The translations under genes and the position numbers were made by a program. Source: an uncultured Bacilli bacterium (GTDB lineage: Bacteria > Bacillota_I > Bacilli_A > RF39 > UBA660). Taken from it: a stretch of 47,257 nt of DNA. Below are positions 9,344-41,050 of the stretch, piece by piece. Each line of letters starts with the position of its first letter. Positions within the stretch are counted from its first letter, which is position 1. The stretch covers positions 1 to 47,257 of the forward strand of contig CALVQN010000002.1 in NCBI GenBank assembly GCA_944358135.1. Direction: 5' to 3'. The notes below the pieces were generated by a model that worked only from the letters and a program-made list of their open reading frames with translations, made no database searches and was not told the origin of the DNA.

Positions 9344-10003
9344 GTGATTTTAGTGCAAGATTTATATAAATTAACCCAGGAGCAAAATATATTTATTGCT
9401 AAAAGAAATATTGTGGATTATATATGGAAAAGCGCTAATTTAGAAGGTATTGCTGTAACGTATCCTGATACGCAAGTAATTTTTGATGGATATAGTGTCC
9501 AAGGTTATAAAATTGAAGAAATAACAGCCATTAACAATTTAAAGAAAGCTTGGCAATTCATTTTAAATGATATCGATTTAGAACTAAATTTAGCTTATAT
9601 TTGCAAAATAAATGGGATAGTAGGGGAAGGCATTTTTTATAATTCTGGAATGATTCGTTCTACACCAGTGAAAATAGGCGGTACAACTTGGCAACCAACT
9701 ATACCATTTGAAAGTCAAATTAAAGAAGAATTAGATAAAGTATCTGGTGAGTCTAATACTGAAAGAGCGATTAATATGATGCTTTATTTAATGAGAAAAC
9801 AAATATTTTTAGATGGTAATAAGAGAACCGCCATGTTAATTGCCAATAAAATAATGATTGAAAACGGTTGCGGAATTATCAGCATTCCTATTGATAAACA
9901 ACCCGAATTTTATAAATTATTAATCAAATATTATGAAACAAGCAATAAAGAAGAAATAAAAGAATACATATATAACTATTGTATTGACGGTATGACCTTT
10001 TAA
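9344..10003 (+). CDS. Fic/Doc-family protein with a Doc-type motif lacking the catalytic His (QIFLDGNKRTA)
   Basis: 219 aa. Fic-fold hallmarks read by eye: G..R...V.IGG, then helix-loop QIFLDGNKRTAML. This matches HxFx(D/N)(A/G)NKR except that His is Gln (CAA at 9800-9802). Confidence 0.6.
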   Translation: MILVQDLYKLTQEQNIFIAKRNIVDYIWKSANLEGIAVTYPDTQVIFDGYSVQGYKIEEITAINNLKKAWQFILNDIDLELNLAYICKINGIVGEGIFYNSGMIRSTPVKIGGTTWQPTIPFESQIKEELDKVSGESNTERAINMMLYLMRKQIFLDGNKRTAMLIANKIMIENGCGIISIPIDKQPEFYKLLIKYYETSNKEEIKEYIYNYCIDGMTF

Positions 10004-10210: not shown

Positions 10211-10987
10211 ATGGCTAGATACAAAGTAGATATTACAGGAATTAACACCAATGAATTAAAAGTATTAAATAGTAGCGAAATGATTAAATTATTTGAAAGG
10301 TATCAAAATGGGGATTTAAGTGCAAAAGAAGAATTAATAAATGGTAATTTAAAATTAGTATTAAGTATTTTACGTAGCTTTAACAAAGGAAATTACAATA
10401 TGGATGATTTATTCCAAGTAGGAGTAATAGGTTTAATTAAAGCCATAGATAATTTTGATTTATCTTATAATTTAAAGCTGTCAACTTATGCAGTGCCTTT
10501 AATACTAGGTGAGATAAAAAGATATATTAGAGACAATAACAGTATAAGAATTAGTAGAAGTATTAAAGATTTAGCTTATAATATCTTAAGATACAAAGAA
10601 TCCTATTTTAATGTCCATGGGAAAGATCCAACTAATGAAGAAATAGCAGAATATTTAGGAGTAGAAGAATATAAAATAGCTCAAGCTTTAGATAGTCTAA
10701 AAGAACCCATGAGTATTTTTGAACCAATTTATAATGATGGTGGTGATACGATTTATTTAATGGATCAGATAGCAGACAAAAAAGATTTAAACAGTGATAA
10801 GGATATGCTAATTTCTCTTAGAAGAGGGTTAAATAAGATTAAAGAAAGAGAAAGGGAAATATTAATAGAACGTTACATTATTGGTAAAACGCAAATGGAA
10901 ATCGCAGCATCTTTAAATATAAGCCAAGCCCAAGTATCCAGAATTGAAAAAAATGCCATTTTAAGTTTAAAAAGAATGATTAAATAG
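10211..10987 (+). CDS. sigG: Sporulation sigma factor SigG (forespore, late)
   Basis: 258 aa and collinear by eye with Bacillus SigG: KV.I.G..T..L.VL, NGNLKLVLS, DDLFQVG.IGL.K..DNFD, STYAVP.I.GEI.RY.RDN, FEPIYNDGGD.IY.MDQI, GKTQMEIA..L.ISQAQVSRIEK. Confidence 0.85.
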   Translation: MARYKVDITGINTNELKVLNSSEMIKLFERYQNGDLSAKEELINGNLKLVLSILRSFNKGNYNMDDLFQVGVIGLIKAIDNFDLSYNLKLSTYAVPLILGEIKRYIRDNNSIRISRSIKDLAYNILRYKESYFNVHGKDPTNEEIAEYLGVEEYKIAQALDSLKEPMSIFEPIYNDGGDTIYLMDQIADKKDLNSDKDMLISLRRGLNKIKEREREILIERYIIGKTQMEIAASLNISQAQVSRIEKNAILSLKRMIK

Positions 10988-12277: not shown

Positions 12278-13027
12278 ATGAACCAAGAAAAAATAGGTAA
12301 GTTTATAAAAACTGAGCGAAAGAAAAAGAATTTAACACAAGAAGAACTAGCTAGTATTTTGGAAGTAACAGATAAAGCAGTTTCTAAGTGGGAAAATGGC
12401 AGATGTTTACCTGATGTATCCTTATTTACTAAATTATGCAAAGCACTAGATATTACGGTAAATGAATTGTTGAATGGTGAAAAACTAAATAAGGATAATT
12501 ATCAGGAAAAGACAGAAGAGATAACCATAAATCTAATGAAAAAAATAAAAAAGAACAAAAAAAGATATATCAAAATAACTATCATAATGATTGTGTTATT
12601 TTTTCTCATAACTCTATTAATTAATGTTATTCCTTATTTTGAATTGGCTGTTCCCTACGATAATAGAATTATGAAGTGTCATATAGATAATGATGAACTT
12701 GTTTTTGAGGTGGCGGGATTAAGCGTAATTAATGAGTATTATGTATTAATAGAAAGCGAAAAAGAGGATGTGTATTTTTTTACAACTAAAATATATCTTT
12801 CTAACAAGCAAAGAAGTCACTTTGAAGCTTGGGATAGTATGGCTAAATTGATAGATGGAAAAAATTTATCATTTGGTTACTATCATAAATTAGATATTGA
12901 TAAAGCTAAAAAAGTGAAAGTCTATCATACTGATACTTCTCTAGATCAGATTAAAAATGCAAATAAAAAAGAATTAGAGGAAATTATAAAAAAATCAAAT
13001 CTAATGTGTGAAAGGGAAGAATTATGA
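12278..13027 (+). CDS. XRE-family HTH regulator with a transmembrane segment and extracytoplasmic domain
   Basis: ATG at 12278 lies 7 nt after GAGG. NLTQEELASILEVTDKAVSKWENG is the HTH. A TM helix sits around residues 100-125. Confidence 0.8.
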   Translation: MNQEKIGKFIKTERKKKNLTQEELASILEVTDKAVSKWENGRCLPDVSLFTKLCKALDITVNELLNGEKLNKDNYQEKTEEITINLMKKIKKNKKRYIKITIIMIVLFFLITLLINVIPYFELAVPYDNRIMKCHIDNDELVFEVAGLSVINEYYVLIESEKEDVYFFTTKIYLSNKQRSHFEAWDSMAKLIDGKNLSFGYYHKLDIDKAKKVKVYHTDTSLDQIKNANKKELEEIIKKSNLMCEREEL

Positions 13028-19296: not shown

Positions 19297-19325
19297 ATTT
19301 GTCAACAGGAGGGGGATTTTTATAT

Positions 19326-19871
19326 ATGAAGGAAACAGAAAAAATTTATTTGGATCAAAAAGGATACCAACAATACTTGCAAGAAATTGAAGATTTAAAA
19401 GAAAGACTAAACGAGAATAGTAGGCAAAAATCATCTGCCTACACAAATGCTGTTGGGGATGGATGGCATGATAACTTTGAATTCGAAGAAGCAAAAAGAG
19501 AAGAATTTAAAATTATGGGATTACTTCGAGACAAAGTTGAAGGATTAAGTAGGATTGTGATTATAGATAAAAATGAAAAATCACAAAATGAAAACGATCT
19601 TGTGGATATTGACGATTATGTAAGTGTTTTATTATTAATGCCAGATGATGAAACAGAACATATGGTCTTTAGATTGGTTGCTTCGTTAAGTACCAATAGA
19701 GGCATAAAAGAAGTTTCTCTGAATAGTCCAATGGGAAAAGCAGTATATGGTAAAAAAGTAGGAGAAACTGGAAAATATCAAGTAAATGGAAATGCTTTTT
19801 TAGTTCAAATACTGGCTAAATCAAAAGATTTAACTGAAGATTTGGAAAATAATAATTCATTAAAAAGGTAA
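19326..19871 (+). CDS. GreA/GreB-family transcript cleavage factor paralog
   Basis: ATG at 19326 after GGAGGGGG. N-terminal coiled coil with tip GDGWHDNFEFEEAK (compare GreA GDLxENAEYxAAK). C-terminal SPMGKAVYGKKVGE (compare SPIARALIGKxVGD). Confidence 0.65.
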   Translation: MKETEKIYLDQKGYQQYLQEIEDLKERLNENSRQKSSAYTNAVGDGWHDNFEFEEAKREEFKIMGLLRDKVEGLSRIVIIDKNEKSQNENDLVDIDDYVSVLLLMPDDETEHMVFRLVASLSTNRGIKEVSLNSPMGKAVYGKKVGETGKYQVNGNAFLVQILAKSKDLTEDLENNNSLKR

Positions 19872-19873
19872 GT

Positions 19874-20764
19874 ATGAATTTTAATTATTTAGTAAATTTA
19901 AATTTATACAGAACATTTTACTTTGTCGCCACTTCTTCGTCTTTTAAGGAGGCATCAGTAAAATTATATATGTCTCAACCTGCAATAAGTAAGCAGATAA
20001 AAGAATTGGAAGATATTTTAGGTGTGAAACTATTTACTAGGTTTAATAAAGGAATCGAGCTAACAAAAATAGGTAGAATTCTTTTTAACCAATTAGAGAA
20101 TGCTAATTTTTATCTAAAAGAATCTATTAATCAGATAGAACAAATTAAAGACTTAAAAGCGGGAGAATTAATTATAGGATGTCCATCTCATATTACTTCG
20201 TTTTATTTATTAGATAAAATAGAAAAATTTAAAACGAATTATGGTAATGTTGAGATAAAAGTGGTCAATGGTTCTACGAGCGAAATGCTAAATGATTTAT
20301 ATCATCATAAAATAGATTTTATGATTGATTTTGATCCAATAGATAATAAATACCATGATTTTAAGATTGAAGTTCTAGATTATTATGATACAGTATTAAT
20401 TGCTAATTATAAATTTGATAAAAAAATAAAGAATTTAAATGATCTAATTGATCAGAATTTTGTTTTACCTTTGCCAAGGAGTTCTGTACGAAAGAACTTT
20501 GAAAAAATATTATTAAATAATGGCATTTCAATTAACGTAGGATTGGATTTAGATACAACTGATCTAATAATTTCGGCTGTAAAAAGAAATTTTGGTATCG
20601 GATATGTAATAAAAGAATCTGTAAAGGAAGAATTAAAGCAAAAGTCTATAAAAGAATTAAAATTAAATTATGACCTTCCAAAATTAAAATTAAATTTAGT
20701 ATATAATGAAAATTTTTTAACACCCTCAGCAAAAGTGTTTATTGATAACTATATTAGAGTTTAA
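19874..20764 (+). CDS. LysR-family transcriptional regulator
   Basis: N-terminal wHTH F..VA...SF..AS..L.MSQPAISKQIKELE..LGVKLF.R, followed by a substrate-binding domain of about 200 aa. Confidence 0.85.
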   Translation: MNFNYLVNLNLYRTFYFVATSSSFKEASVKLYMSQPAISKQIKELEDILGVKLFTRFNKGIELTKIGRILFNQLENANFYLKESINQIEQIKDLKAGELIIGCPSHITSFYLLDKIEKFKTNYGNVEIKVVNGSTSEMLNDLYHHKIDFMIDFDPIDNKYHDFKIEVLDYYDTVLIANYKFDKKIKNLNDLIDQNFVLPLPRSSVRKNFEKILLNNGISINVGLDLDTTDLIISAVKRNFGIGYVIKESVKEELKQKSIKELKLNYDLPKLKLNLVYNENFLTPSAKVFIDNYIRV

Positions 20765-20881: not shown

Positions 20882-20901
20882 GTTTCTAGTAGGTGATTGT
20901 G

Positions 20902-21765
20902 ATGTCCAAAATTAAATTGATAGCAATTGATATTGGTGGGACTTTAATTGATGATAACAATAATATTCCGCCGGAAAATATTGAAATATTAAAAAAAATG
21001 AAGAAGCAAGGCATAAAAATAGCACTAGTTACTGCAAGAATGCTATCCTCAACAAAATACATTAGTAACGTAATTGAATGTGATTATGGAGTATATGGAA
21101 ATGGAAGCAATATCATAGACTTAAACAATAACAAAGTGCTTTATTTAGAAAAGTTATCAAATAGAAATTTAGAAAGTTTGGTAAATTTTGGAAAAAAACA
21201 AAATTTATATATTCACTTAAATCAAGTTTTTCAAGAAGTATCAGATCAAAAAAAATATTTTGCTTTAAAGCATATTCTTTTAAACAAAAAATATCCTAGT
21301 AATCTTCAAAGCAATGTAGAAGTTGTTTCGAGTTTAAAAGATTACATTAATAATACCGATAATATTGTAAAATTAGTTTTTGTATCAAAGAAGAATTTAG
21401 ATGTAATAAAAGAAAAAATATCAAAAGAGTTTCCAGACATTTTCATAACTGAATATAATACGAATCTAAAAGAAACTGCAATTAATGAGATTATTAATTA
21501 CATTGAGATAGGAGCGAAAGCTACAACTAAAGCAGAAGGTGTTAAAAAATTGGCAAATATACTCAATTTAAATCAAGAGGAGATTCTAGTTATCGGAGAT
21601 GGAAACAACGATATAGAAATGTTTAAAGCATTTAAGAATTCAGGTTGTTTAAAAAATGGAACATCAGAAGCTAAAGTTAATGCTAATTATGTTTCAGAAA
21701 AAAACAATAATGAAGGCGGATTAAGTGAAATAATAGAATATTATATTAATAAAGAGGAGGAGTAA
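20902..21765 (+). CDS. HAD-IIB (Cof-type) phosphatase-like protein with an atypical motif I (DIGGT)
   Basis: KLIAIDIGGTLID (motif I), VTAR (motif II region) and GDGNNDIEMF (motif IV). Cap-domain size is typical of Cof. ATG at 20902 after AGGTGA. Confidence 0.75.
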   Translation: MSKIKLIAIDIGGTLIDDNNNIPPENIEILKKMKKQGIKIALVTARMLSSTKYISNVIECDYGVYGNGSNIIDLNNNKVLYLEKLSNRNLESLVNFGKKQNLYIHLNQVFQEVSDQKKYFALKHILLNKKYPSNLQSNVEVVSSLKDYINNTDNIVKLVFVSKKNLDVIKEKISKEFPDIFITEYNTNLKETAINEIINYIEIGAKATTKAEGVKKLANILNLNQEEILVIGDGNNDIEMFKAFKNSGCLKNGTSEAKVNANYVSEKNNNEGGLSEIIEYYINKEEE

Positions 21766-21771
21766 TGAATA

Positions 21772-22380
21772 ATGAAAATAGCGATTGAGGGTATGGATGG
21801 AGTTGGAAAAACCACTTTAGCAAAAAAATTGGCTCAAGAATATAATTTTAAATATATTGAAAAGCCACTAATGGACTTTTTTGAAATTGATAATTTAGAT
21901 ACTAAAGCAATTTATGGCCAAATTTGTGATAAATTATATCAATTTAATAGCGAAATTCCTAAAGCTTGGTTTTTCGGACTAGGTAATGTCTATACATTTT
22001 TAAAATATAAGGATGAAAATATAATTATTGACAGGCATTTTGCCTCAAATTATTTTTGGAATGGAACAGAAGAAACAAATTGCATTTTTAAAACTATGAT
22101 TGATCTTGTAGGTGTGCCGGATCTTACTATTGTACTGTATGCTTCCATTGAAACTAGAAATAATAGATTAAAAAGAAGGGATGCTTTAGATAGAGATATA
22201 TACGATCCTGAAAAACAAGTATTGGGAAGTGATAAAATGATAAATTTTTTAGAGAATTTTCACATCCCTTATGTTCTCATTAATACTGAAGGAAAAACAA
22301 AAGAAGAGGTTTTTAATGAATCCAAATTAATTATAGATGGATTACAATTAGATAGTTTTTCAAGAAAACGTAGGAGGTAA
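21772..22380 (+). CDS. Thymidylate-kinase-fold nucleoside/nucleotide monophosphate kinase
   Basis: P-loop IEGMDGVGKTT, DRHFASNY (compare TMPK DRY..S) and lid-like RLKRRD. The RBS is embedded in the end of the HAD gene. Confidence 0.65.
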   Translation: MKIAIEGMDGVGKTTLAKKLAQEYNFKYIEKPLMDFFEIDNLDTKAIYGQICDKLYQFNSEIPKAWFFGLGNVYTFLKYKDENIIIDRHFASNYFWNGTEETNCIFKTMIDLVGVPDLTIVLYASIETRNNRLKRRDALDRDIYDPEKQVLGSDKMINFLENFHIPYVLINTEGKTKEEVFNESKLIIDGLQLDSFSRKRRR

Positions 22381-22381
22381 A

Positions 22382-23095
22382 ATGTTACAGTTTTTGGGAA
22401 TAGGTGGTGCTTTTTCAGTTGATCTAGGAAATACATCCGCATTTTATAAAAAAGAGAATGAATTATTTTTATTGGATTGTGGTGAAGATGTCTTTGGCAA
22501 TATATTGAAAAACCATTTATTAGAAGGAGTCACTAAAATTAATATTCTTATTACTCATTTTCATAGTGATCATGTTGGTAGTTTAGGTACTTTGGTATTT
22601 TACTGTGATGCAAGCAATTTAGAGGAAATTAATATTGTTTTTCCAAATAGAGAAAAATTGGTTGAATTAATTAGGCAGTTTGGTATACAAAATTGTAATA
22701 TTAATATCTATACACCGAAAGAGTTCGCTAGATTAAAAATTAAAGAATATCGTCAAGAACATGATGTGATTGAGGCTTATGGGTATATAATAAAATTGGA
22801 TGGAAAAACAATTTATTATTCTGGAGATACTAAATCTCTTCCTGATGAAGTTTTCGCTCTTTTGATTAAAGGAAAAATAGATTATTTTTTTCAAGATGTT
22901 AGATTAAAACAAAACCCATATCATTTATCATTAGAAGAATTAGAAAGTAAAATACCATTTAATTTAAGAAAACAAATTAATTGTATGCACTTTGTATCAG
23001 AAGCAGAAATCAACGAAGTTACAGAACATGGTTTTTCGAGAGTTAGAAGGTTTGAAAGCGAGGAAAAAAATGGAAATATTAAGTCCAGCAAGTAA
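22382..23095 (+). CDS. MBL-fold metallo-hydrolase (RNase Z / PhnP-like phosphodiesterase subgroup)
   Basis: LGIGGAF...LLDCGE...ILITHFHSDHVGSLG (HxHxDH), with later YSGDT and MHF motifs. Its start lies 1 nt after the kinase stop. Confidence 0.7.
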   Translation: MLQFLGIGGAFSVDLGNTSAFYKKENELFLLDCGEDVFGNILKNHLLEGVTKINILITHFHSDHVGSLGTLVFYCDASNLEEINIVFPNREKLVELIRQFGIQNCNINIYTPKEFARLKIKEYRQEHDVIEAYGYIIKLDGKTIYYSGDTKSLPDEVFALLIKGKIDYFFQDVRLKQNPYHLSLEELESKIPFNLRKQINCMHFVSEAEINEVTEHGFSRVRRFESEEKNGNIKSSK

Positions 23096-25151
23096 TATGA
23101 GACATATACAGGTTGCAATTGATAATAAGGCAAATGCTGTATATGGAGGTTTGAAAAATTGGAATGCTAGAAATAAGGCAATTAATTTTACAGAAGCCGA
23201 ATATAATCAATTAATAACAATGTTACATCAAAATAATATAAAATTCTTTTTGACTTTAAATATTCTAATGCTTGATAATGAAATTGAAGAAGTAATAACA
23301 TTTTTGAAGAAAAATTCTTTGCCCGATGCTTTCATAGTCACAGATATTGGATTAATACAGGTATTAAAGCAAGAATTTCCTAATGTTCCATTACATTTTT
23401 CAACACAATTTGGTTGTCATTGTATTGACGATGTTAATTTTGTAAAGGCTATTGGCGGAACAAGGGCTATTTTATCTAGGGAACTTACATTAAAAGAAGT
23501 GGAAAAAATCAGAAATAATACAGATATTGAGTTAGAGTGCTTTATTTGGGGATCTCAATGTCTAAGTTTTTCTGGGTTATGTTTTTTTGGCAGTTTGATC
23601 AATGGCGGAAGTGGTAATAGGGGGAAATGTATCACTTTATGCAGAGATGTTTACTCGGTTAATGAAAATGGTCATTTGTTATATGTTCCAGATATGGATT
23701 GTATAAATTTAATAAGTAAATTAGATAAAATAGATTGCCTAAAATTGGAGGGACGTCGTAGAGATCCTAAAGAAATTGAAAAAATTTTACAACAAATTTC
23801 TAATAAAGAAACATCGGACCAAAATGTAGGATATTTATATGGAACAAATAGTAAGGATAATAATCAATATGAACTAATTAATTCTAGAATTAAGCCAGTA
23901 TTTCAAGCAAATGAACTAAAGAATCGAGACGACTATGATGTGTTTATAGAATACCAAAATGGTAAGCCAATTAGATTTTCGAATAATTATAATAATCCAA
24001 ATGTATTTTATGTATACTCAGAAATTAAAAGGAAATATAGCTTGACTAAAAAGAATATTAGTATCGATTTAACTTTTGATGAGAATGTTGTATCTGAAGT
24101 ATTATATGTCAATTATAAAGGGGATGGACATACATTTTTTAGAGATAATAATAGTAATGATGATCAAATTGTGTTAGATTTTGATGAATTGATTCGGCGA
24201 TTATCTTTAAATGATAAAATAAATATTTATAAAATAAAATTCAAAAAGGGGCAATATGATAAATATCTAGTCAGTAAATCTATGTATGATAAAATGATAA
24301 ATTATATTCTAGATGATTGTAAAAATACACGTGAAACTTATCCAACAATTCCTTTAAAACTTAATAAAATATTATTAGAAACTCAACAGGAAGAGATTTT
24401 AACCGAATTTGTTAAAGATAAATTCGTAAAAGTGATATATGATATAAGTACAATAGATAAACTAAAAAATATTCAAAATATTATAGATCAATATGGTGAT
24501 AAGATAATTTATAAATTACCTTTATTCAATTGGGATAGTGAAGATGTTATACCTTATATTTCTAAGCTTGAAAACAAAGAAATTATGTTTACTAGAATGT
24601 CCCAAATATATCTATCAAAAAATATTCATTTTAAAAAGAAATATGCGGATTATACAATATACGTTTGGAATAAAGAAAGTTTAAATTTTTTAAAAAATAT
24701 GGGAATTCAAGAGTTTACTTTATCACCAGAATTAGATTATGAAACTAATATGAAAATTTATAATGCTGAAAAAGTACAAGCCCTGTTGTGTGGCAAATTT
24801 CCTCTTGTTTATACAAGAAATTGCTTTAAAGAGGTTTTTAATTGTAACAATTGTATTAGAGAACAATCATGCTTAAAAACAATAGTAAATGTAGACAAAG
24901 GAATAGATTTTGAAATATTGTGTAATACTGATTATCGTTATGTATTAAGTAAAATCCCTGTGTTAAATGATTATTCAAGATTTAAAATAGGAGAAAATGT
25001 AAACTTTAGGTATATTGCACTTGGCGATAATGCAGAAAACATTAGAAAAACATTAAATATTTTAAAAGAAGTTAATTTTTATGAAAAATTAAAAGCAAAT
25101 GATTATTGGAAAGATTCTTATGAATGTAACATTATAGAAAGTAAAAGTTAG
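23070..25151 (+). CDS. U32-family protein (RlhA/TrhP/UbiU-UbiV-type putative Fe-S hydroxylase), apparently with two U32-like modules
   Basis: The ATG at 23070 (RBS GAGGAAAAAAA) gives MEILSPASN....AI...ANAVYGG, the canonical U32 N-terminus. The Cys cluster is E.FIWGSQCLSFSGLCFFGS....GSGNRGKCITLCR. The C-terminal half repeats a similar pattern (LSPELDYE....LLCGKFPLVYTRNCF...CNNC). It overlaps the MBL gene by 26 nt. Confidence 0.75.
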   Translation: MEILSPASNMRHIQVAIDNKANAVYGGLKNWNARNKAINFTEAEYNQLITMLHQNNIKFFLTLNILMLDNEIEEVITFLKKNSLPDAFIVTDIGLIQVLKQEFPNVPLHFSTQFGCHCIDDVNFVKAIGGTRAILSRELTLKEVEKIRNNTDIELECFIWGSQCLSFSGLCFFGSLINGGSGNRGKCITLCRDVYSVNENGHLLYVPDMDCINLISKLDKIDCLKLEGRRRDPKEIEKILQQISNKETSDQNVGYLYGTNSKDNNQYELINSRIKPVFQANELKNRDDYDVFIEYQNGKPIRFSNNYNNPNVFYVYSEIKRKYSLTKKNISIDLTFDENVVSEVLYVNYKGDGHTFFRDNNSNDDQIVLDFDELIRRLSLNDKINIYKIKFKKGQYDKYLVSKSMYDKMINYILDDCKNTRETYPTIPLKLNKILLETQQEEILTEFVKDKFVKVIYDISTIDKLKNIQNIIDQYGDKIIYKLPLFNWDSEDVIPYISKLENKEIMFTRMSQIYLSKNIHFKKKYADYTIYVWNKESLNFLKNMGIQEFTLSPELDYETNMKIYNAEKVQALLCGKFPLVYTRNCFKEVFNCNNCIREQSCLKTIVNVDKGIDFEILCNTDYRYVLSKIPVLNDYSRFKIGENVNFRYIALGDNAENIRKTLNILKEVNFYEKLKANDYWKDSYECNIIESKS

Positions 25152-25160
25152 GAGGCTTCT

Positions 25161-25871
25161 ATGAAGACAAAAAGTATATGGGGAAATCCCCCAAAAAGAT
25201 TATATAAGTTAATGAAGATAGCCGAAAGGGATTTTGGCAAAAAGTATACAGCTTGTATTGTAGGTTGTTCTGATGGTAAATTTTTATTACCATTTGCTAG
25301 AAAGAAAATAAGAGTTGCCGGTTATGATATTGATGATATTGCCTTATATGGTGGTCAAAAATTATTTCCAATTGTTAATGAAAAAAATAAGTATCAATAT
25401 AATAAAAATTTTAAATCTCCAGAATATGAATTGGTTGAAAAAAGAGTATTAGGAATTACAGAAAGGTTAGAGATAGAAAATTTATCTGATTATGCTTTAA
25501 TTGAAAAAAGAGATTTTTATCGTAATGTACCCAAAAAGACTTTCGATGTAGTTTTTACTAGCTGTTCTTTACATTATACAGCTAATAAAGATTTTAGTTT
25601 GGAAGATAAAACAAAAAAATTACAAAGCATTGTTTCTGTTGGAGGATATTTATATATAGATTATATGATGGCAATAGAAGAAGGAGATTATACATTATAT
25701 CCGAAAGAAAAGTTCTATCGTAAGGGTGAAATTTTAAAATATTTTGATAATAATTGGAAAATTATTTCATGCAAAGAAAACAACCTTCCATCTTTTGAGG
25801 GAGCGCATGTTGATTGTGTTAAAGATCATTTTCATAGATTTGGATATCTATTGGCAAAGAGGATTAAATAA
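25161..25871 (+). CDS. Class I SAM-dependent methyltransferase (TehB-like)
   Basis: Motif I IVGCSDGK, acidic loop GYDID and motif IV region FDVVFTSCSLHY. RBS TTAGGAGG. Confidence 0.6.
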   Translation: MKTKSIWGNPPKRLYKLMKIAERDFGKKYTACIVGCSDGKFLLPFARKKIRVAGYDIDDIALYGGQKLFPIVNEKNKYQYNKNFKSPEYELVEKRVLGITERLEIENLSDYALIEKRDFYRNVPKKTFDVVFTSCSLHYTANKDFSLEDKTKKLQSIVSVGGYLYIDYMMAIEEGDYTLYPKEKFYRKGEILKYFDNNWKIISCKENNLPSFEGAHVDCVKDHFHRFGYLLAKRIK

Positions 25872-26641
25872 TGACGAAAGAAATTTGTTGGAATATTACC
25901 GCTTTATGTAATCAAAGTTGTAAGTACTGTCATCGATTTTTAAATCTTAAAAATTTATCTTATGAAGAAAATTTAAAAATTTTGTATAATTTAATTGATT
26001 CAGGTGTGGATCATATTACCTGGACAGGTGGTGAAGCTTTGATGTTAGATTATCTTGACGATTTATTGAAGATTTCTTATGATAAAGGAATTAAAAATAA
26101 ATTGATAACTAATGGCAGGCTTTTAACAAGAAACAGAATAGACAAAATCTATAAATACTTGGATAATATTACATTATCAATTGATTCAATAGATAATGTA
26201 ATAAACGAAGCATTAGGGCGAGGAAAGTATCATTTTAAAGAAATACAAAGCATTTTAGAATATATTACAGAAAAAAAGTATGACATAAAAATTAGTATTA
26301 ATACTGTAATATGCAAGCTTAATTTACACGATGTTTGCTCTTTATCCAATTTCTTAAATATTTATAATATTTGGAGTTGGAGAATTTTCAAATTTATGCC
26401 ATTACGAGAAAAAGCAATTACTAATAAGGAAATATTTGATATTTCAATGGATGAATTTTCTAAAATTGTCAATGAAATAAGGAAGAAAAGTTTAATTCAA
26501 AATATTGATACTAGGGTTGAAGAAGATATGGAGAAAAAATATGTTTTAATACTTGCCAATGGAGATATAGTAATTACAAATCAGGGAAAAGATGAAAAAG
26601 TTGGTAATGCTTTAATAGATCGCATGGAGAAATATATATGA
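25871..26641 (+). CDS. Viperin-like radical SAM enzyme (prokaryotic viperin candidate)
   Basis: CNQSCKYC (CxxxCxxC). It is collinear by eye with vertebrate viperin: N....CN..C.YC; ITWTGGEAL vs INFSGGEPF; LITNG.LL vs IVSNGSLI; LSIDSID..IN..LGRGK vs ISCDSFDEEVN.LIGRGQ; ISINTVI...N vs FKINSVIN..N; WRIFKFMP vs WKVFQCLL; KYVLIL vs SYLILD. TAATG overlap with the methyltransferase gene. Confidence 0.65.
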   Translation: MTKEICWNITALCNQSCKYCHRFLNLKNLSYEENLKILYNLIDSGVDHITWTGGEALMLDYLDDLLKISYDKGIKNKLITNGRLLTRNRIDKIYKYLDNITLSIDSIDNVINEALGRGKYHFKEIQSILEYITEKKYDIKISINTVICKLNLHDVCSLSNFLNIYNIWSWRIFKFMPLREKAITNKEIFDISMDEFSKIVNEIRKKSLIQNIDTRVEEDMEKKYVLILANGDIVITNQGKDEKVGNALIDRMEKYI

Positions 26642-27525
26642 TTGAATATACTGGAAAACAAGTTACAATAATGGCTTGTTCAGATTGCAATGCTAATTGT
26701 GAGCACTGTTATATATCATATACTGGAAATATGACAGGCAAATATTTATTGCAAATGTGTAGATTGTTTAAAAATAAATACAAAATAATTATAAATGGAA
26801 CAGAACCATTATTGCATGAAGATTATTTTGAAGCATTCAAATTATCTGATCAAAATCGAATTTTAACAAATGGTCTCATAATTAATAGTGATGAAACAAT
26901 ATTAGATAAAATAAAAGAAACTGGTATAAAAAATATAGCAATGTCTTATCATTTTGGAACCGAAATATCTACTGTGCCACAAGATATTGTTGAACAAGCT
27001 ATAATTAAAATAAAAAAACACAATTTAAATCCAGAATTAATGTGTACAATAACTGTAGAAAACTATGATAAATTAGATGATATATGTAAAAAGACAATTG
27101 ATTTAGAAGTTAATACGATAAGATTTTTTAATTGTATTAATACTGGAAAATGCGAATCAAATTGCTCAAATTTCTGCCTTGATGACGAACAAATTAATCA
27201 TTTTTTTGATCAATTAGTTGAGGTAAGAAAAAAATATGGCAAAGATATTTTAAAAATTAAAAGAAATGGTCTATTTGGTAAAGATAGTAATAATACTAAT
27301 TATAATTTTAAGTGTGTTGCCAGTATTGATGAAGTTGTTATCACACCAGATGGAAATGTTTATCCTTGTATATTTATGGCAAAACCGGGATTTGAAATTG
27401 GTCATTATGAGAATGGCAAAATTCTGCTTTATTATCAATTAGACAATAATGAGGATAGATGTATTGCACATGATATTTTTAATAAAAAAGAATATTCCTT
27501 TTCAAAAAAACTTGTAAAAAGGTAA
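26638..27525 (+). CDS. Second radical SAM enzyme with a Cys-rich SPASM/twitch-like C-terminal region
   Basis: CNANCEHC at residues 17-24, NGTEPLL and LTNG. C-terminal Cys clusters CINTGKCESNCSNFC and C........VITPDGNVYPC. ATGA overlap with the viperin-like gene. Confidence 0.7.
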   Translation: MIEYTGKQVTIMACSDCNANCEHCYISYTGNMTGKYLLQMCRLFKNKYKIIINGTEPLLHEDYFEAFKLSDQNRILTNGLIINSDETILDKIKETGIKNIAMSYHFGTEISTVPQDIVEQAIIKIKKHNLNPELMCTITVENYDKLDDICKKTIDLEVNTIRFFNCINTGKCESNCSNFCLDDEQINHFFDQLVEVRKKYGKDILKIKRNGLFGKDSNNTNYNFKCVASIDEVVITPDGNVYPCIFMAKPGFEIGHYENGKILLYYQLDNNEDRCIAHDIFNKKEYSFSKKLVKR

Positions 27526-27626
27526 ATTTTGTTGAATAATATAAGCATATTTAATGTATGAATTAGGAGGCTTTTAATAAATTTATAAAAATAATTCTAA
27601 AATTAAATTAAAAAAAATAAAATTCG

Positions 27627-27635
27627 TGATATAAT
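27627..27635 (+). promoter_or_regulatory. Possible internal extended -10 promoter for the CYTH gene pair
   Basis: TGATATAAT in the 135-bp gap after the second rSAM gene. There is no convincing -35. Confidence 0.3.
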
Positions 27636-27659
27636 TATTATAGTTAAAGGAGTGATTTT

Positions 27660-28451
27660 ATGCCAAAGATTGAAAAAGAAATAAAAGTACTTAATATAAA
27701 CGTTGATCAAGTACAAGATAAACTTAAAGAAATTGGAGCAAAAGCCAAAGGAAAAAAAGAACAAAAAATTTATGTTTATGACGTTCCAGCTTTATACTAT
27801 CGCTTTTTAGAAATAAGAGAATTAATTAACTCTTCTAATGGGTTACTGGTAGAAACAAATTTAAAGAAATTAGAAGTGTTATTATTAGAATACATTGATT
27901 TAGAAAACGAAGAAGAATTAGCCATAGAAAAAACTTTGCTTGGACTAAACGATTTGATGGATATATTAAAATTAGATATTGATAATATTAGAGAAATATT
28001 AAACAATCAAACGTTAGAGGCTAATATGAAGAAGTTTTTAATTAATCCTAATAAGTGGGTTAGACTTAGAAAAAGTAATGATAAAATTGAACTAACCACA
28101 AAACATATTCTCAATAAAAAGCATGGTGATTACCAGAACGTTTTGGAAACTGAAATTGAAGTATCTTCATTTGAAGAAGCAAATAACTTATTAGAAAGCA
28201 TTGGCATATGTAAAAGAAATTATCAAGAAAAAATAAGATATAGTTTCGTTTATAAGGATGCACAGATTGAAATAGATATTTGGCCTATGTTAGATCCATA
28301 TTTAGAAATTGAATGCGATAACAATAAAACTATCGAAGAAATTTTAGAAAAATTGAATTTAAAAGAAAATGAAATAGTTTCTACTAATACAGAGTCATTA
28401 TATAAAAGAAAAAATATTGATATTTTACAAATTTCTACATTAAAATTTTAG
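27660..28451 (+). CDS. CYTH-domain (triphosphate tunnel metalloenzyme; CyaB/ThTPase-like) protein with an internal insertion
   Basis: N-terminal ExExK (EKEIK). Later blocks: WVRLRK....ELT.KH, ETEIEV..FEEA...LE.IG, and K.R.SF......IEIDIWP.L.PYLEIE. About 75 extra residues lie between the first and second conserved blocks. Confidence 0.65.
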   Translation: MPKIEKEIKVLNINVDQVQDKLKEIGAKAKGKKEQKIYVYDVPALYYRFLEIRELINSSNGLLVETNLKKLEVLLLEYIDLENEEELAIEKTLLGLNDLMDILKLDIDNIREILNNQTLEANMKKFLINPNKWVRLRKSNDKIELTTKHILNKKHGDYQNVLETEIEVSSFEEANNLLESIGICKRNYQEKIRYSFVYKDAQIEIDIWPMLDPYLEIECDNNKTIEEILEKLNLKENEIVSTNTESLYKRKNIDILQISTLKF

Positions 28452-28459
28452 GGGGATTA

Positions 28460-29134
28460 ATGAAAAAGAAACAAACCATTTTATGCTCTAATGACGAGAA
28501 TATAAATAAATTGATAAGTACTTTGGCTAATAAAAAAGTTTTTAATCAACTTTTAGAAGTGTTAAGAAGTATAGGCACTTTTGATACAAAAATTGAGATT
28601 TTTAAAGACGAAAGTAATTTAGATGATGAAAAGATCAAAGTGTGGTGTTTTGATCAAAATAATAATATATTTGTTTTTTGCTTATTTTCAGATGCTAAGC
28701 AAGACTTCTTTAAAATTTCTGAAGAAAGAGATGATGGAGTCTCTGTTTACTATGACTTTTCTTTATCAAAAAATTATCCATTAAGTTCCAATAATATTAG
28801 TTTTATAAAATGTGAACACATTTACAATTTTAAGCATGGAAGATTAATAACTACTAGTGAAAATGATTATAACTTATTTATACAGAATGATAATATAATA
28901 AGCATCCATGTAGATCCCTTAGATCAGAAGTTGGATGTAGATATGCTTTTAAAAGGTTTAAATTCATGCGAAACAATCAATTTAAAAAATTATATCGAAA
29001 TAGTTAATTCAATAATTACATTTCATCATTTAAACATTAATTATATTAAAGTTAGTATAGTAAGTAAATTTCAAGTTGTTAATGAATTTAAGATAAACTT
29101 TGAACCAGTACATAAAGAGACGATCAATTTGTAA
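28460..29134 (+). CDS. Hypothetical protein, last gene of the viperin-associated operon
   Basis: 224 aa. RBS GGGGGA. No TM segment and no motif I can recognise. Confidence 0.5.
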   Translation: MKKKQTILCSNDENINKLISTLANKKVFNQLLEVLRSIGTFDTKIEIFKDESNLDDEKIKVWCFDQNNNIFVFCLFSDAKQDFFKISEERDDGVSVYYDFSLSKNYPLSSNNISFIKCEHIYNFKHGRLITTSENDYNLFIQNDNIISIHVDPLDQKLDVDMLLKGLNSCETINLKNYIEIVNSIITFHHLNINYIKVSIVSKFQVVNEFKINFEPVHKETINL

Positions 29135-29465: not shown

Positions 29466-29539
29466 TGGTGCTGAATGACTGAATTGAACAGTCCTCTGAT
29501 GCTTACCATGCATCCGTTTTACCACTAAACTAAATCAGC
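29466..29539 (-). tRNA. tRNA-Thr (anticodon GGU)
   Basis: Hand-folded 74-nt cloverleaf: acceptor GCTGATT/ATTCAGC (one U-U mismatch at 6:67), D arm GTTT-AGTGGTA-AAAC, anticodon arm GATGC-AT GGT AA-GCATC, variable loop AGAG, T arm GACTG-TTCAATT-CAGTC, discriminator A, encoded CCA. Confidence 0.8.
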
Positions 29540-30760: not shown

Positions 30761-30822
30761 TCTCTTTTCCTTTTCTATGATTTGTAGTATAATACTTTTA
30801 GTTTATGTACGGGAGGGAAACT

Positions 30823-33123
30823 ATGAAATTTAAAATATCACCAAAAGACTTTTTAATGTTTTGTTTATATTGCATTTTATTATTATATTTATGTGCTATC
30901 GCTGTTTTAAATTTCTCATCTTTTATCAATGAAGGTGAATTTTATGGATTACTTCCCTTTGAAGCTTTTACAGGAGAATACATAGGCCTTACATTATTCA
31001 TGTTTGTTGTCGCTTTAATTCTTATTTTTACTAGTGTATCTTCTTATATTTTTAATAAAGAAAAAGGAAAAGGTTTTGGTCTAAAATTTGGGGAAAAGCA
31101 AGAAAGTGGTTATGCTAGATGGGCAACAGATAAAGAGATTAAAAATGATACAAATATTGAACGTGTTGATCCAAAAGCAGATACTTTAAATGCCGCAGGT
31201 ATCCCTTTAATTAATAATGGCAAAGAAATATGGGTTGATAATGGCGAATATCATAACTTAGTAATAGGTTCAACTGGTTCAGGTAAAACACAAACCATAG
31301 TTAAACCAATGGTAAACCTTCTTGCCAAAAAAGGAGAATCAATGATTATCACTGACCCTAAAGGTGAGATTTATAAATATGCAGCATCTGCTCTAAAAGA
31401 GCGTGGATATAAAATCATTGTCTTAAACTTCAGAGAACCAGCTCATGGTAACGCTTGGAATCCGTTAACGCTACCTTACAGATATTACAAAGAGGGAAAT
31501 ACTGATAAATCAACAGAATTACTAGATGACGTAGCCCTAAATATTTTATATGACCAATCAAAGAAAAGTAATGACTCTGATTTCTGGGAAAAAAGTGCAG
31601 CTGATTATTTCTCAGGTTTAGCTTTAGGCTTATTTTATGATGCCAATGAAAAAGAAGTAAACTTAAATAGTATTAATTATATGTCAAGTGTAGGGGAAGA
31701 ACGTTATGCAACTAGTAATTATATTAAGGAATACTTTAATTTAAAAGGACCAGAATCAAGCCCATACATCTTCGCTTCTAATACAATAAATGCTCCAAAT
31801 GAAACAAAGGGTGGTATTTTATCTACATTTAGACAAAAAATTCGTCTTTTCTCATCAAGAGAAAGTTTAAGTGAAATGCTAGCTTACAGTGATTTTAACA
31901 TGCAAGATATTGGAAGAGAAAAAACAGCAGTATTCATGATTATTCATGACGAAAAGAAAACATATCACTCATTAATGACAATATTTATTAAGCAATGTTA
32001 TGAAACTTTAATTGATGTTGCTCAAGAAAATGGGGGAAAACTACCATTTAGAACAAACTTTATATTAGATGAATTTGCCAATATGCCACCACTTAAAGAT
32101 GTAGACTCTATGGTTAGTGCAGCCCGTTCAAGAGACATCAGATTTACCTTTATTATTCAAAACTTTGCGCAGTTAAATGATGTATATGGTAAAGAAGTAG
32201 CAGAGATTATCAAAGGAAACTGTGGTAACTTAGTATACTTAATTTCAACAGAATTAGCAGCTTTAGAAGAAATATCAAAAATGTGTGGAGAGGTAAAATC
32301 AAAAGAAAAAGACAAAACGGCCTCAACACCACTTGTAACAGTATCTGACTTACAAAAATTAAAACTATTTCAAGCGATCATTATTCGTTTACGTATGAAT
32401 CCATTCAAAACTAAATTAGAACCTGACTTTAAAATGGATTGGGGAATAAAACGTGAAGAAGCTGAATACCCAAATAGAGAAATAAAGAAAATAGAATTAT
32501 TTGATTTAAAGAAATTTGTTACTGAAGAAAAGAGAAAACAGATGATGAGCAATCTTGAAAATAGTGGTAAAGAGCCAAGTCCATTTAGTAATAATTTTGG
32601 GAATCCTTTTACTTCTGGAGGCATGATGAATCCATTTGGCAATACTAAACCAAATGAATCTTTATTTAATACAGGAAGTCCATTAGGAGTTACACCATCT
32701 TCCCAAAACTCTTCACCATTTAGTTCAAATCCAATGTTTAACAAACCAATGAGTAGTTTATCAGATATGGATATCGACCAAATGATGAAAGATATTGATC
32801 GAAGATTAAAAGAATTAGATGAAGAAGAAGAAAGACAAAAGAAAGAGATGGAAAAAGCGAATACTATAGGAAAACCTACAGAACAAATTATAGAAAGTCC
32901 AAAAGAAGAAGCACCAATTGAAACATTAAATACACCAAGTAATATTCAAGAAACCAAAATTGAAGAATTACCAAAAGAAACTGAATCAGAAGTAAAAACA
33001 ACTCCAGCATCCCCAATAAACAAAGAAAATAAACCCAAAATAAATGTAGATGCTGATAGTATTATTGTCAATGACAGTGGAATCACAGATGATGAATTCT
33101 TTGATGATTTCTTTGGAGAATGA
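30823..33123 (+). CDS. Type IV secretion coupling protein (VirD4/TraG/TcpA-like ATPase) with a long low-complexity C-terminal tail
   Basis: ATG at 30823 after GGGAGGGA. Two N-terminal TM helices, Walker A GSTGSGKTQT and Walker B FILDEFANM. The C-terminal region of about 195 aa is N/P/S/E-rich and ends DDEFFDDFFGE. Confidence 0.8.
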   Translation: MKFKISPKDFLMFCLYCILLLYLCAIAVLNFSSFINEGEFYGLLPFEAFTGEYIGLTLFMFVVALILIFTSVSSYIFNKEKGKGFGLKFGEKQESGYARWATDKEIKNDTNIERVDPKADTLNAAGIPLINNGKEIWVDNGEYHNLVIGSTGSGKTQTIVKPMVNLLAKKGESMIITDPKGEIYKYAASALKERGYKIIVLNFREPAHGNAWNPLTLPYRYYKEGNTDKSTELLDDVALNILYDQSKKSNDSDFWEKSAADYFSGLALGLFYDANEKEVNLNSINYMSSVGEERYATSNYIKEYFNLKGPESSPYIFASNTINAPNETKGGILSTFRQKIRLFSSRESLSEMLAYSDFNMQDIGREKTAVFMIIHDEKKTYHSLMTIFIKQCYETLIDVAQENGGKLPFRTNFILDEFANMPPLKDVDSMVSAARSRDIRFTFIIQNFAQLNDVYGKEVAEIIKGNCGNLVYLISTELAALEEISKMCGEVKSKEKDKTASTPLVTVSDLQKLKLFQAIIIRLRMNPFKTKLEPDFKMDWGIKREEAEYPNREIKKIELFDLKKFVTEEKRKQMMSNLENSGKEPSPFSNNFGNPFTSGGMMNPFGNTKPNESLFNTGSPLGVTPSSQNSSPFSSNPMFNKPMSSLSDMDIDQMMKDIDRRLKELDEEEERQKKEMEKANTIGKPTEQIIESPKEEAPIETLNTPSNIQETKIEELPKETESEVKTTPASPINKENKPKINVDADSIIVNDSGITDDEFFDDFFGE

Positions 33124-39974: not shown

Positions 39975-39997
39975 GGAACATCTTACAGACCTGTTTT
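39965..39997. terminator. Bidirectional terminator between nfo and the Rpn-family gene
   Basis: AGGTCTGTA pairs with TACAGACCT around a 10-nt loop, followed by GTTTTATTTT. Confidence 0.6.
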
Positions 39998-40826
39998 ATT
40001 TTATATTTTCAATTTCTTCTTGTGATAAGCCAGTTACATTAACTATATCCTTTATAGACATATTCATTTTAAGAAGATTTCTAGCTGCTTTAATCAGTTT
40101 TTGATGTTCTTCAAGCCTTCCTTCTTCTTTAGCATAGTATTCAATATCGGTTATTTTATCAAACTCATCTTGTAGTTCTTCATCATTTAAGAAATCTTCC
40201 ATTAATCTTATTGCACTTTCCATTACTTCATCCTCCTTTGCAATATTTTTTAGTTCCTTCATATCTTTAGCATTAATCATTTTAAGCCACCTTACAAATC
40301 TTTCTTCTTTATCTTGATTGTATACGATATCCTTGATTTTGTCAAGTTTGATAAAGTACATCTCTAAACACCCATTATGGGTTACTTGATAATCAAACTT
40401 ATCAATAAGTGAATAATCATTAATTAAAGATCGATTAGATTCATAATAGTTTGTTTTAATAATATTAAGGCTTGTTATTTTTTTAGCATTCTGATAATTT
40501 TTACCCCGTTTAAACTGATTAGAAAATTTTCTAGAGATATAAGCCATACTTTTATTAAATTCTCTTAAACTAAATTTTTTGTACATTTCAATAGACATTA
40601 TTTTTTCATGTTCAAGATAAGCCATAATATCTCCATAATAAAGTTTGTATTTTCTTTTATCTCCACTAATTCTTTCATCCGTATTTACTCTGATTTTAAC
40701 AACACTTTTATTTTCCTTGATAAAATGAAAGAAAGAATTAAGAAAATCAATTAAAATAGTTTCATTACTAAAAATATGTTTAAAGGTTGAGTCATCAGAT
40801 AAGCCTAAAAATGCATTCTTTTCCAT
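39996..40826 (-). CDS. Rpn-family recombination-promoting nuclease / PD-(D/E)XK putative transposase
   Basis: The real start is the ATG at 40826 (RBS GAAAGGAGAAAG). DDSTFKHIFSNE..LIDFLN, D......YLEHEKIMSIEMYKK, and a C-terminal helical region ending LSQEEIENI resemble the PDDEXK_2/Rpn family. Confidence 0.65.
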   Translation of the reverse strand: MEKNAFLGLSDDSTFKHIFSNETILIDFLNSFFHFIKENKSVVKIRVNTDERISGDKRKYKLYYGDIMAYLEHEKIMSIEMYKKFSLREFNKSMAYISRKFSNQFKRGKNYQNAKKITSLNIIKTNYYESNRSLINDYSLIDKFDYQVTHNGCLEMYFIKLDKIKDIVYNQDKEERFVRWLKMINAKDMKELKNIAKEDEVMESAIRLMEDFLNDEELQDEFDKITDIEYYAKEEGRLEEHQKLIKAARNLLKMNMSIKDIVNVTGLSQEEIENIK

Positions 40827-41050
40827 AAACTTTCTCCTTTCTAGAAGCACTATACTAAAAAGGGAAAAGTAAGTCAAATTGCCAATTTTATCAATTTCAA
40901 AGATCAAATTAACAATTTGCTGTATGAAATTAATAAATTGATGTATGAAATAGCCAAAAGGTAGAGTGAAATTAATAGAATTAGTAAATTTTAAAAAAAT
41001 AGTAATTTGTTGCAAAATTTGTTGAAAAGAAAAAACTTCTTAAAAAGAAG

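Follow-up and report, generated by a model that had tools for sequence, protein, structure and literature searches.

The 47,257-nucleotide stretch analysed here, hereafter the window, comprises positions 1 to 47,257 of contig CALVQN010000002.1 (assembly GCA_944358135.1) of an uncultured Bacilli bacterium and has a G+C content of about 26%. At 25871..26641 of its + strand lies the gene of a 256-residue radical S-adenosylmethionine (SAM) enzyme, which belongs to the viperin lineage of SAM-dependent nucleotide dehydratases and represents a distinct compact, tail-less subfamily. The gene is part of a conserved cluster that is accessory and mobile. We see an about even chance that the enzyme performs one step in the synthesis, by this cluster, of a tailored chain terminator of the 3'-deoxy-3',4'-didehydro (ddh) type directed against RNA polymerase, with Gre-like and metallo-β-lactamase (MBL)-fold proteins providing self-protection.

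Among the antiviral enzymes that bacteria and humans have in common, viperins are to our knowledge the best conserved, and every characterised member makes plain ddh-nucleoside triphosphates. A large gut-bacterial clade that lacks the triphosphate-gripping tail and is accompanied by a hydroxylase, methyltransferases, a CYTH protein and Gre paralogues points to tailored chain terminators. If this is true, the clade could hold possible new antiviral or antibacterial nucleoside scaffolds, an explicit route by which a producer shields its own RNA polymerase and the first free-nucleotide substrate for the U32 anaerobic hydroxylases. A preliminary description of this DNA had recognised the viperin homologue; the genomic context, which lay outside it, changes the role that the gene most likely has.

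A compact member of the viperin lineage

The preliminary description rested on motifs found in order along the protein, all of which the translation bears out. In the open reading frame (ORF), which starts with ATG, the CxxxCxxC cysteines C13, C17 and C20 are encoded at nt 25907-25930, and the collinear blocks read NITALCNQSCKYC, GGEA, TNG, LSIDS...GRG, SINTVI, WRIFK and KYVLIL. Both the CX3CX2C motif and the GGE SAM-binding motif (G53-G54-E55) are invariant in 122 of 122 compact-clade members.

We place the gene in the viperin lineage because family profiles, PDB sequence matches and the AlphaFold fold all agree. The PADLOC model for prokaryotic viperins (pVips) 'associated with kinases' matches the protein at 152 bits (E = 4.7e-45), and the model 'not associated with kinases' at 139 bits. 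In NCBIfam, the top match is NF038283 viperin_w_prok (134 bits, E = 5.7e-39); other radical SAM families reach at most 70 bits (PTO1314 70; MoaA 66, with a cutoff of 284). No radical SAM subfamily outside the viperins gave a better profile score, the viperin models leading widely. The best nine chains of a PDB sequence search are all viperin or viperin-like, and profile A1 scores viperin chains of the PDB at 115-127 bits, MoaA at 85 and SkfB at 78. When the strict compact clade (A4) was compared by hhalign with a set of eukaryotic viperins and twelve tail-bearing bacterial relatives (A3), the probability was 100% (E = 1.3e-62).

An AlphaFold2 model, built on 41 homologues (mean pLDDT 95.7, pTM 0.91), has the viperin fold, a partial (β-α)6 barrel with a C-terminal extension, in which the β-hairpin 232-246 is kept and the final tail is missing. 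Its best 17 Foldseek matches in the PDB are all viperins or viperin-like proteins (TM 0.84-0.86, rmsd 2.2-2.9 Å), among them those of mouse (5VSL/6Q2P), T. virens (9DFW/9DGW/9DFN) and N. vectensis (7N7H); SkfB reaches a TM of 0.80. MoaA (GTP 3',8-cyclase), the usual outgroup of viperins, shares the radical SAM core and the general barrel, and is the second-best group in profile and fold searches (85 bits; TM 0.72), but its scores are clearly lower. A C-terminal Cys triad, as for the MoaA-type auxiliary cluster, is absent from the viperin-like protein, whose cysteines are only at positions 6, 13, 17, 20, 148 and 156.

With the vertebrate and fungal viperins (RSAD2; 5VSL, 6Q2P, 7N7H, 7N7I, 9DFW) and their partner CMPK2, the window enzyme shares the fold over about 256 columns, the collinear motifs and the linkage to a nucleotide kinase. 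In contrast, it is only about 20% identical, has neither the N-terminal amphipathic extension nor the C-terminal tail, and carries Cys in place of N77, Asn in place of H79 and Lys in place of Q250.

The protein has more than 600 homologues, mostly of 256 residues and with about 70% identity, whose sources are gut metagenomes and metagenome-assembled genomes labelled uncultured Bacilli or Clostridia; none is annotated by name.

Loss of the tail and of triphosphate-type residues

Residue maps were made with MAFFT and hhalign from the viperin chain sequences of mouse, N. vectensis and T. virens in the PDB, with mouse numbering fixed by C84. As the preliminary description had it, there is no N-terminal extension and the C-terminus is short: the protein starts five residues before strand β-1 and ends at the position of mouse I334, about 28-30 residues short of viperin. 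In neither alignment does the C-terminal tail (mouse 335-362, with R347, the GGK loop and W353; KFSGFDEKMFLKRGGKYVW...W) have a counterpart, and the bacterial tail motif 'IW...F(D/N)...H..R..W' of 280-300-residue relatives is missing as well. The protein covers positions 3-250 of 281 in the NCBIfam profile, 5-230 of 262 in the PADLOC profile and template columns 11-265 of 291 in hhalign. The viperin tail is said to become ordered upon nucleotide binding, its P-loop binding the γ-phosphate.

The window equivalents of mouse K120, K220, R245 and K247 are H48, S142, S169 and R171, respectively. The mapping at the first three positions is robust, since it is anchored by the adjoining GGE, W246 and N222. 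Across the compact clade the K120 position is occupied by Ser (105/122), Asn (10/122) or His (5/122) and the R245 position by Ser (117/122), while Arg is found at the K247 position in all 122 members and at the K220 position in 114 of them; the Ser of the window protein at this last site may indicate a less active or altered allele. In A3, K120, K220 and R245 are invariant and K247 nearly so. Fifteen tail-bearing relatives keep the K120 equivalent in 14 cases and that of R245 in 13.

Two of the motif blocks, W(R/K)xF(K/Q) and the C-terminal one, had been taken to line the nucleotide pocket of viperin. The residues of this pocket are kept in part. R194 (R117 in the window protein), N158 (N81), D182 (D105), N222 (N144) and the catalytic-site Tyr302 (Y224) are kept and invariant or near-invariant, and W246, K247 (as R171) and F249 are kept as well; the tail and the equivalents of K120, K220 and R245 are lost in the window protein. 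H21 and K174, the latter replacing Q250, are specific to the compact enzymes, which have gained the basic residues K174, K240 and K243; the change of N77 to C6 is common to bacterial relatives.

Tail and residues were surveyed in 122 sequences, made up of 118 representatives from clustering at 50% identity plus two PDB viperins, P0035 and the window protein. Forms without a tail turn up often in this neighbourhood. The K/K/R set is lost in the window's clade and in its nearest relatives (P0121-P0123, P0129, P0134, P0140 and P0143). Judged from these alignments, the combined loss of the tail, K120 and R245 suggests that the substrate is bulkier, or that its phosphates are fewer or differently placed. 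The 134 bits on NF038283 lie below the 180-bit equivalog cutoff; tail-bearing relatives, which match the whole profile, score 139-171 bits and likewise remain under it.

For the nucleobase contact in the β-8 loop, we compared Cys314/Lys319 (CTP), Arg257 (UTP) and the conserved Asn/Asp of prokaryotic pockets. The loop aligns ambiguously: hhalign puts N237 at Cys314, and the conserved (V/I)G(N/D) motif gives N246. With this ambiguity, no CTP-selective pocket of the Cys314/Lys319 type was identified in the alignment. Asn and Asp nucleobase pockets are described in prokaryotic viperins by Shomar et al., and N246 would seem to fit these better than N237.

A conserved cluster around the viperin-like gene

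The viperin-like gene is the sixth in a co-directional array, in which we found no convincing internal + strand terminator. It shares 1 nt (TAATG) with the upstream methyltransferase gene, MT1, and 4 nt (ATGA) with the radical SAM gene downstream, an arrangement suggestive of translational coupling.

Among the related loci fetched (L001 and following), presence and absence were scored by tblastn, supplemented by Pfam annotation for the short contig L022. The genes for a LysR-type regulator, a kinase, a U32-family protein, MT1, the viperin-like enzyme and a CYTH protein occur together in L001-L008, L011, L013-L016 and L020; in L022, U32, MT1, the viperin-like gene and CYTH were detected by tblastn, and the kinase with a faint Gre-like match by Pfam. 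The cluster is thereby conserved in at least 15 loci of uncultured gut Bacilli and Clostridia. This core set recurs across identities of 39-94%, with LysR seen wherever the contig reaches far enough. Compared with their window counterparts, the least similar proteins (LysR, U32 and Gre-like in L011 and L013) are 28-40% identical and the most similar 94%. In L005, L007, L011, L013 and L022 the gene order is rearranged, and the same gene set still stays together. Against L001, which is about 90% identical to the window in nucleotides, the viperin-like gene had been considered as a divergence hot spot; its nucleotide identity of 0.90-0.93, which is like that of its flanks, does not support this.

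MT1 (25161..25871, +) adjoins the viperin-like gene in 15 of the 15 cluster loci. It is an orphan SAM-dependent methyltransferase with weak Pfam methyltransferase matches, and its family numbers 266 proteins, none of them named.

The kinase gene (21772..22380, +) encodes a P-loop nucleoside/nucleotide kinase of the viperin-associated type (Pfam Thymidylate_kin E = 5e-12, dNK E = 8e-9; P-loop GMDGVGKT). It matches the PADLOC model VakA, which we take to stand for 'viperin-associated kinase', at 57 bits over profile positions 3-158 of 163. With tblastn, such a VakA-like gene of thymidylate-kinase fold was found in the window and in 14 loci; Pfam annotation adds the one of L022.

The CYTH or triphosphate-tunnel-metalloenzyme (TTM)-like protein (27660..28451, +) has an N-terminal ExExK motif (EKEIK at residue 5), a sub-threshold NCBIfam cyaB match (24.5 bits) and a PDB match to the TTM Saci_0718 (E = 7e-6). 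CYTH genes are present in all cluster loci, with two in L022. The presence of this gene in the cluster parallels the eukaryotic fusions of viperin to a triphosphatase/cyclase domain, reported by Shomar et al. (2023) together with kinases near 12% of bacterial viperins.

The LysR-type regulator (19874..20764, +; Pfam HTH_1 and LysR_substrate) has the viperin-like gene as a neighbour in L001-L016 and L020, the distant L009, L010 and L012 among them. Between it and the kinase, the window encodes a Cof-type HAD-fold protein (20893..21765, +; Pfam Hydrolase_3, E = 2.5e-45) with an atypical motif I, DIGGT. A HAD gene occurs in 11 loci. All orthologues, with those of L001-L008, L014-L016 and L020, have D(I/V)GGTL as motif I, with Gly where HAD phosphatases carry Asp+2 as general acid/base.

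The U32-family gene (22992..25151, +; likely true start near 23070, about 693 residues; Pfam Peptidase_U32, E = 9e-45) encodes a TrhP/UbiU-like N-terminal domain followed by about 450 residues of unmatched C-terminal sequence. As in TrhP, RlhA and UbiU/UbiV, its Fe-S motif CX6CX15CX3C (at residue 190) is intact, and methyltransferases come after it; but both NCBIfam matches are far under the cutoff (TrhP 148 bits against 534; UbiU 119 bits), and the context suggests as substrate a free nucleotide and neither RNA nor a quinone. A PDB sequence search found no homologue for this protein, nor for MT1.

The likeness to TrhP raises a reading by RNA modification: the U32 enzyme would hydroxylate a tRNA or rRNA pyrimidine as TrhP and RlhA do, the methyltransferases would turn the product into a methoxy-type base, and the viperin-like enzyme would act on the RNA ribose. 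We hold this to be highly improbable. The N-terminal domain is closest to TrhP and the adjoining methyltransferases resemble the logic that leads from ho5U to mo5U; but the fold of MT1 is like that of small-molecule and not RNA methyltransferases, the kinase, HAD, CYTH and MBL genes suit free nucleotides, the cluster is mobile and patchy, and no RNA-binding domains were detected in Pfam and NCBIfam scans.

Comparison with known kinase-associated viperins

The viperin family and its partnership with kinases are already known. With the pVips and their kinases (Bernheim et al. 2021; PADLOC PDLC02903/02904, VakA), the window enzyme has in common the radical SAM core, the SAM motif, the Tyr302 equivalent, the WKxF block, the linkage to a VakA-type P-loop kinase and a mobile accessory setting. 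It differs in being about 28-30 residues shorter at the C-terminus, in the replaced K120 and R245 equivalents and in its sub-equivalog score, and its gene belongs to a conserved cluster, 8-12 genes in size, with U32, methyltransferases, CYTH, Gre paralogues, an MBL hydrolase and a second radical SAM enzyme.

One alternative is an ordinary anti-phage pVip with its kinase, which would convert CTP, UTP or GTP to the corresponding ddhNTP amid unrelated or loosely accessory neighbours. The match to the kinase-associated pVip model, the VakA-like kinase four genes upstream, the viperin fold and the mobile context all agree with it, and K174, K240 and K243 might make up for the lost basic residues. 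We nevertheless consider it unlikely: the tail and the K120 and R245 equivalents are gone across the clade and kept in nearby tail-bearing relatives, and the score stays below the equivalog cutoff. U32, MT1, CYTH and Gre-like genes co-occur in 15 loci despite rearrangement, start and stop codons overlap, and MT1 is restricted to the cluster. In addition, searches of phage and viral collections gave no relatives, and the surroundings are not those of a classical defence island. PADLOC and other defence pipelines would probably label the gene simply 'pVip' and miss the pathway. We found no paper on a tail-less viperin clade with U32, methyltransferase, CYTH and Gre-like genes in a search that left most of the subscription literature outside.

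Gre-like proteins and a probable link to RNA polymerase

A chain terminator against RNA polymerase, the product that we favour for the cluster, would agree with the Gre-factor paralogue encoded at 19299..19871 (+; probable ATG start 19326; Pfam GreA_GreB C-terminal domain). This protein aligns over its full length with Gfh1/GreA chains, but has diverged strongly (E about 1e-4 to Gfh1). At the tip of its coiled coil stands GDGWHDNFEFE, compared with GD-LKENAEY in E. coli GreA, GD-LRENAGY in a cleavage-stimulating chimera and DD-YDDSGLE in the anti-cleavage factor Gfh1. The acidic tip is kept, one residue is added (GDGWHDN) and the 'WHDN' core is present in all cluster copies.

Gre-like genes occur in 13 of the 15 cluster loci at the threshold of the tblastn table, L006 having a shorter match downstream of the cluster; in all, such genes were seen in 14 of the loci, in L022 as the faint Pfam match alone. 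Six loci carry two copies (L002, L003, L004, L007, L008 and L020).

The window's MBL-fold hydrolase or phosphodiesterase gene (22382..23095, +; Pfam Lactamase_B_2, E = 4e-14; HxHxDH motif as HFHSDH) has counterparts in a subset of loci; it is Apyc1-like at a sub-threshold level (Anti-Pycsar_Apyc1, 35 bits, cutoff 50). At L020:5836-7092 an Apyc1-like MBL-fold hydrolase and a GreA_GreB domain are fused in one 418-residue protein, and at L003:5129-6381 the two parts are contiguous and separate. Read from the gene structure, this fusion in one genome would couple a secondary-channel factor of RNA polymerase to a phosphodiesterase or nuclease.

A precedent is TFIIS, which in eukaryotes is the functional analogue of Gre: it removes chain terminators, 3'-dAMP among them, from transcripts of Pol II, and the same work speculates that prokaryotic factors do likewise (PMC3499576).

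The Gre-like family is small, with 93 proteins in 5.8 billion. That it is unique to the cluster is true in part only, distant members having housekeeping contexts. The most distant ones (L025:9001-9513 and L026:9001-9474, 157-170 residues) lie near Ham1/ITPase, TruB and PolA, or near a UvrD-like helicase and ProRS. Given such contexts, the cluster copies look like dedicated paralogues of the lineage's divergent GreA; the ordinary GreA of the host lineage itself appears unusually divergent.

A mobile, accessory island

In L020, a contig of 1.24 Mb, the cluster and a 562-residue large serine recombinase lie between two fragments of one Peptidase_S11 gene. This island of about 14 kb (L020:2166-17090) splits a D-Ala-D-Ala carboxypeptidase whose fragments match Pfam positions 10-107 and 126-237. 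In L002, L003, L004 and L012 the cluster is bordered by genes for serine recombinases or VirD4-like coupling proteins. The flanking genes vary, with a two-component system and uppS in the window and relA/argS/tyrS in L014. The latter surroundings had raised the possibility of a housekeeping, vertically inherited cluster, which the L020 island and the differing flanks rule out. Phage origin was rejected too: there are no relatives in IMG/VR, and the best INPHARED matches are 24-29% identical 'moaA'-type genes.

A gene for a VirD4/TraG-type coupling protein (30805-33123) is located about 1.7 kb downstream of the window cluster, similar genes being downstream in L001 and L002, and the window also holds genes for a PD-(D/E)XK-family transposase (39996-41015, - strand) and a Fic-domain protein (9344-10003). 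Together these hint at an integrative or conjugative neighbourhood.

PfkB-linked relatives and a metabolic alternative

More distant compact relatives lack U32 and MT1, and have PfkB kinases fused or adjoining (L009, L012, L018/19). PfkB-linked viperin-like genes are at L009:9992-11644, L012:10894-11646, L018:1476-2429 and L024:141-1010. In L024, a PfkB gene and two Nuc_deoxyrib_tr-like genes adjoin the gene of P0168, a tail-bearing relative with the full basic set. The idea that PfkB linkage marks a monophosphate substrate is weakened by this case, and PfkB is better seen as a feature of the wider branch that does not report on phosphate number.

These neighbours bear on a further alternative, in which a viperin-fold radical enzyme would serve a LysR-regulated metabolic or salvage pathway and act on a metabolite that is not a nucleotide, or not a triphosphate, for instance a sugar phosphate or a nucleoside monophosphate. 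The lost tail and triphosphate-type residues, the universal adjacency of LysR, the PfkB sugar/nucleoside kinases of the relatives, the Cof-type HAD protein together with a DAHP-synthase-like gene in some clusters, and the sugar-nucleotide radical SAM enzymes DesII and BlsE among the Foldseek neighbours would all suit it. Yet RNA polymerase is indicated by the Gre paralogues and by the fusion of MBL with Gre, a VakA-type kinase and CYTH are in the cluster, the Y302, R194, N222 and K247 equivalents are kept, PfkB is not diagnostic, and a mobile island fits an accessory function better than core metabolism. We judge such a pathway distinctly unlikely.

A proposed pathway to a tailored chain terminator

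If, as we favour, the cluster makes a tailored ddh-type terminator against RNA polymerase, the VakA-type kinase would supply a phosphorylated nucleoside. The U32 Fe-S enzyme would then hydroxylate its base ring in an oxygen-independent manner; in characterised U32 members, prephenate is used and O2 is not needed for the hydroxylation of pyrimidines at C5 or of quinone rings. MT1, along with a second methyltransferase (MT2) where it is present, would O-methylate the hydroxylated nucleoside, and the optional second radical SAM/SPASM enzyme could tailor it further. The viperin-like enzyme would abstract the 4'-H and eliminate the 3'-OH to give the 3'-deoxy-3',4'-didehydro product, with CYTH and HAD-like proteins presumably setting the phosphate state. 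We infer that the product would be a modified chain-terminating nucleotide, aimed at the RNA polymerases of phages or competitors. Protection or rescue of the host's own RNA polymerase, perhaps through terminator excision, would fall to the Gre paralogues and the MBL hydrolase, and LysR would control expression of the cluster.

Several points weigh against this scheme. On the side of the viperin-like enzyme, mouse K120, K220, R245 and K247 reportedly bind the triphosphate together with the P-loop tail; some tail-less relatives in the 122-sequence survey keep the full K/K/R set, and the gained K174, K240 and K243 might compensate for the losses, so that an NTP substrate could still be used. As for the partners, we know of U32 enzymes characterised so far only with tRNA, rRNA or quinone substrates. 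In AlphaFold2 and Foldseek comparisons, MT1 has a generic small-molecule class I methyltransferase fold (OvsM, TehB, TPMT, UbiG; TM 0.55-0.60), a match that would not name a substrate class. The HAD protein, lacking Asp+2, may not be an ordinary phosphatase. The extra tip residue means that the Gre-like protein could be inhibitory like Gfh1, and distant Gre-like members (36-42% identity) sit among polA, fpg and truB or uvrD and proS without a viperin-like gene. Besides the kinase (VakA, PDC-M51B), no cluster gene has a strong defence match in PADLOC; the MBL protein and MT2 have weak partial ones (LmuA, mad2).

It is possible, although we put it forward tentatively, that a previously undescribed system is at work here. 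The tail-less viperin-like enzyme, U32, the methyltransferases and the second radical SAM enzyme would build a base- and sugar-modified nucleotide, while the Gre-like and MBL proteins would confer immunity by excision, or would be co-effectors that deliver or sense the nucleotide, like DksA with ppGpp. Taken as a whole, the cluster has a substantial chance of being a new kind of nucleotide-based system.

Variable genes of the cluster

The second radical SAM enzyme (26638..27525, +) has a partial SPASM/twitch domain and a CX3CX2C motif at residue 17; its Pfam matches are just below cutoff (Radical_SAM 27.9 bits, SPASM 19.2 bits). It occupies a variable tailoring slot, being found in the window, L001, L002 and L020.

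MT2 is nearly everywhere among the related clusters and is missing from the window. In L001 it lies at 10253-10950, between the viperin-like and radical SAM/SPASM genes, and in L020 at 12370-13017; the window counterpart region, 27526-27659, is without it.

A gene of the DAHP-synthase family (285 residues) is located between U32 and MT1 at L002:7694-8551, L003:8447-9298 and L020:9156-10008, and is missing from the window. It is split into two ORFs in L020 and L021, maybe by a frameshift. DAHP synthase catalyses the entry step of the shikimate route toward prephenate, the oxygen donor of the U32 family; the gene may be tied to the prephenate dependence of U32 hydroxylases, or to a condensation of phosphoenolpyruvate with an aldose.

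Downstream of CYTH, a 224-residue ORF (28460..29134, +) had no family match in Pfam, NCBIfam and PADLOC scans. It is missing from the closest relative, L001, and has weak matches only in L002 and L003; this variable accessory gene is probably not core to the cluster. It is followed by a tRNA-Thr gene (29466-29539, - strand) and then by uppS. The tRNA-Thr was the only hit when the whole window was scanned with Rfam for riboswitches and regulatory RNAs.

In L022 (111-6861), from a relative that is 53% identical, the cluster is divided between two divergent arms. The two CYTH genes of this locus are short (184 and 189 residues), and a BPL_N (glutamine-amidotransferase-like) gene comes after the viperin-like gene.

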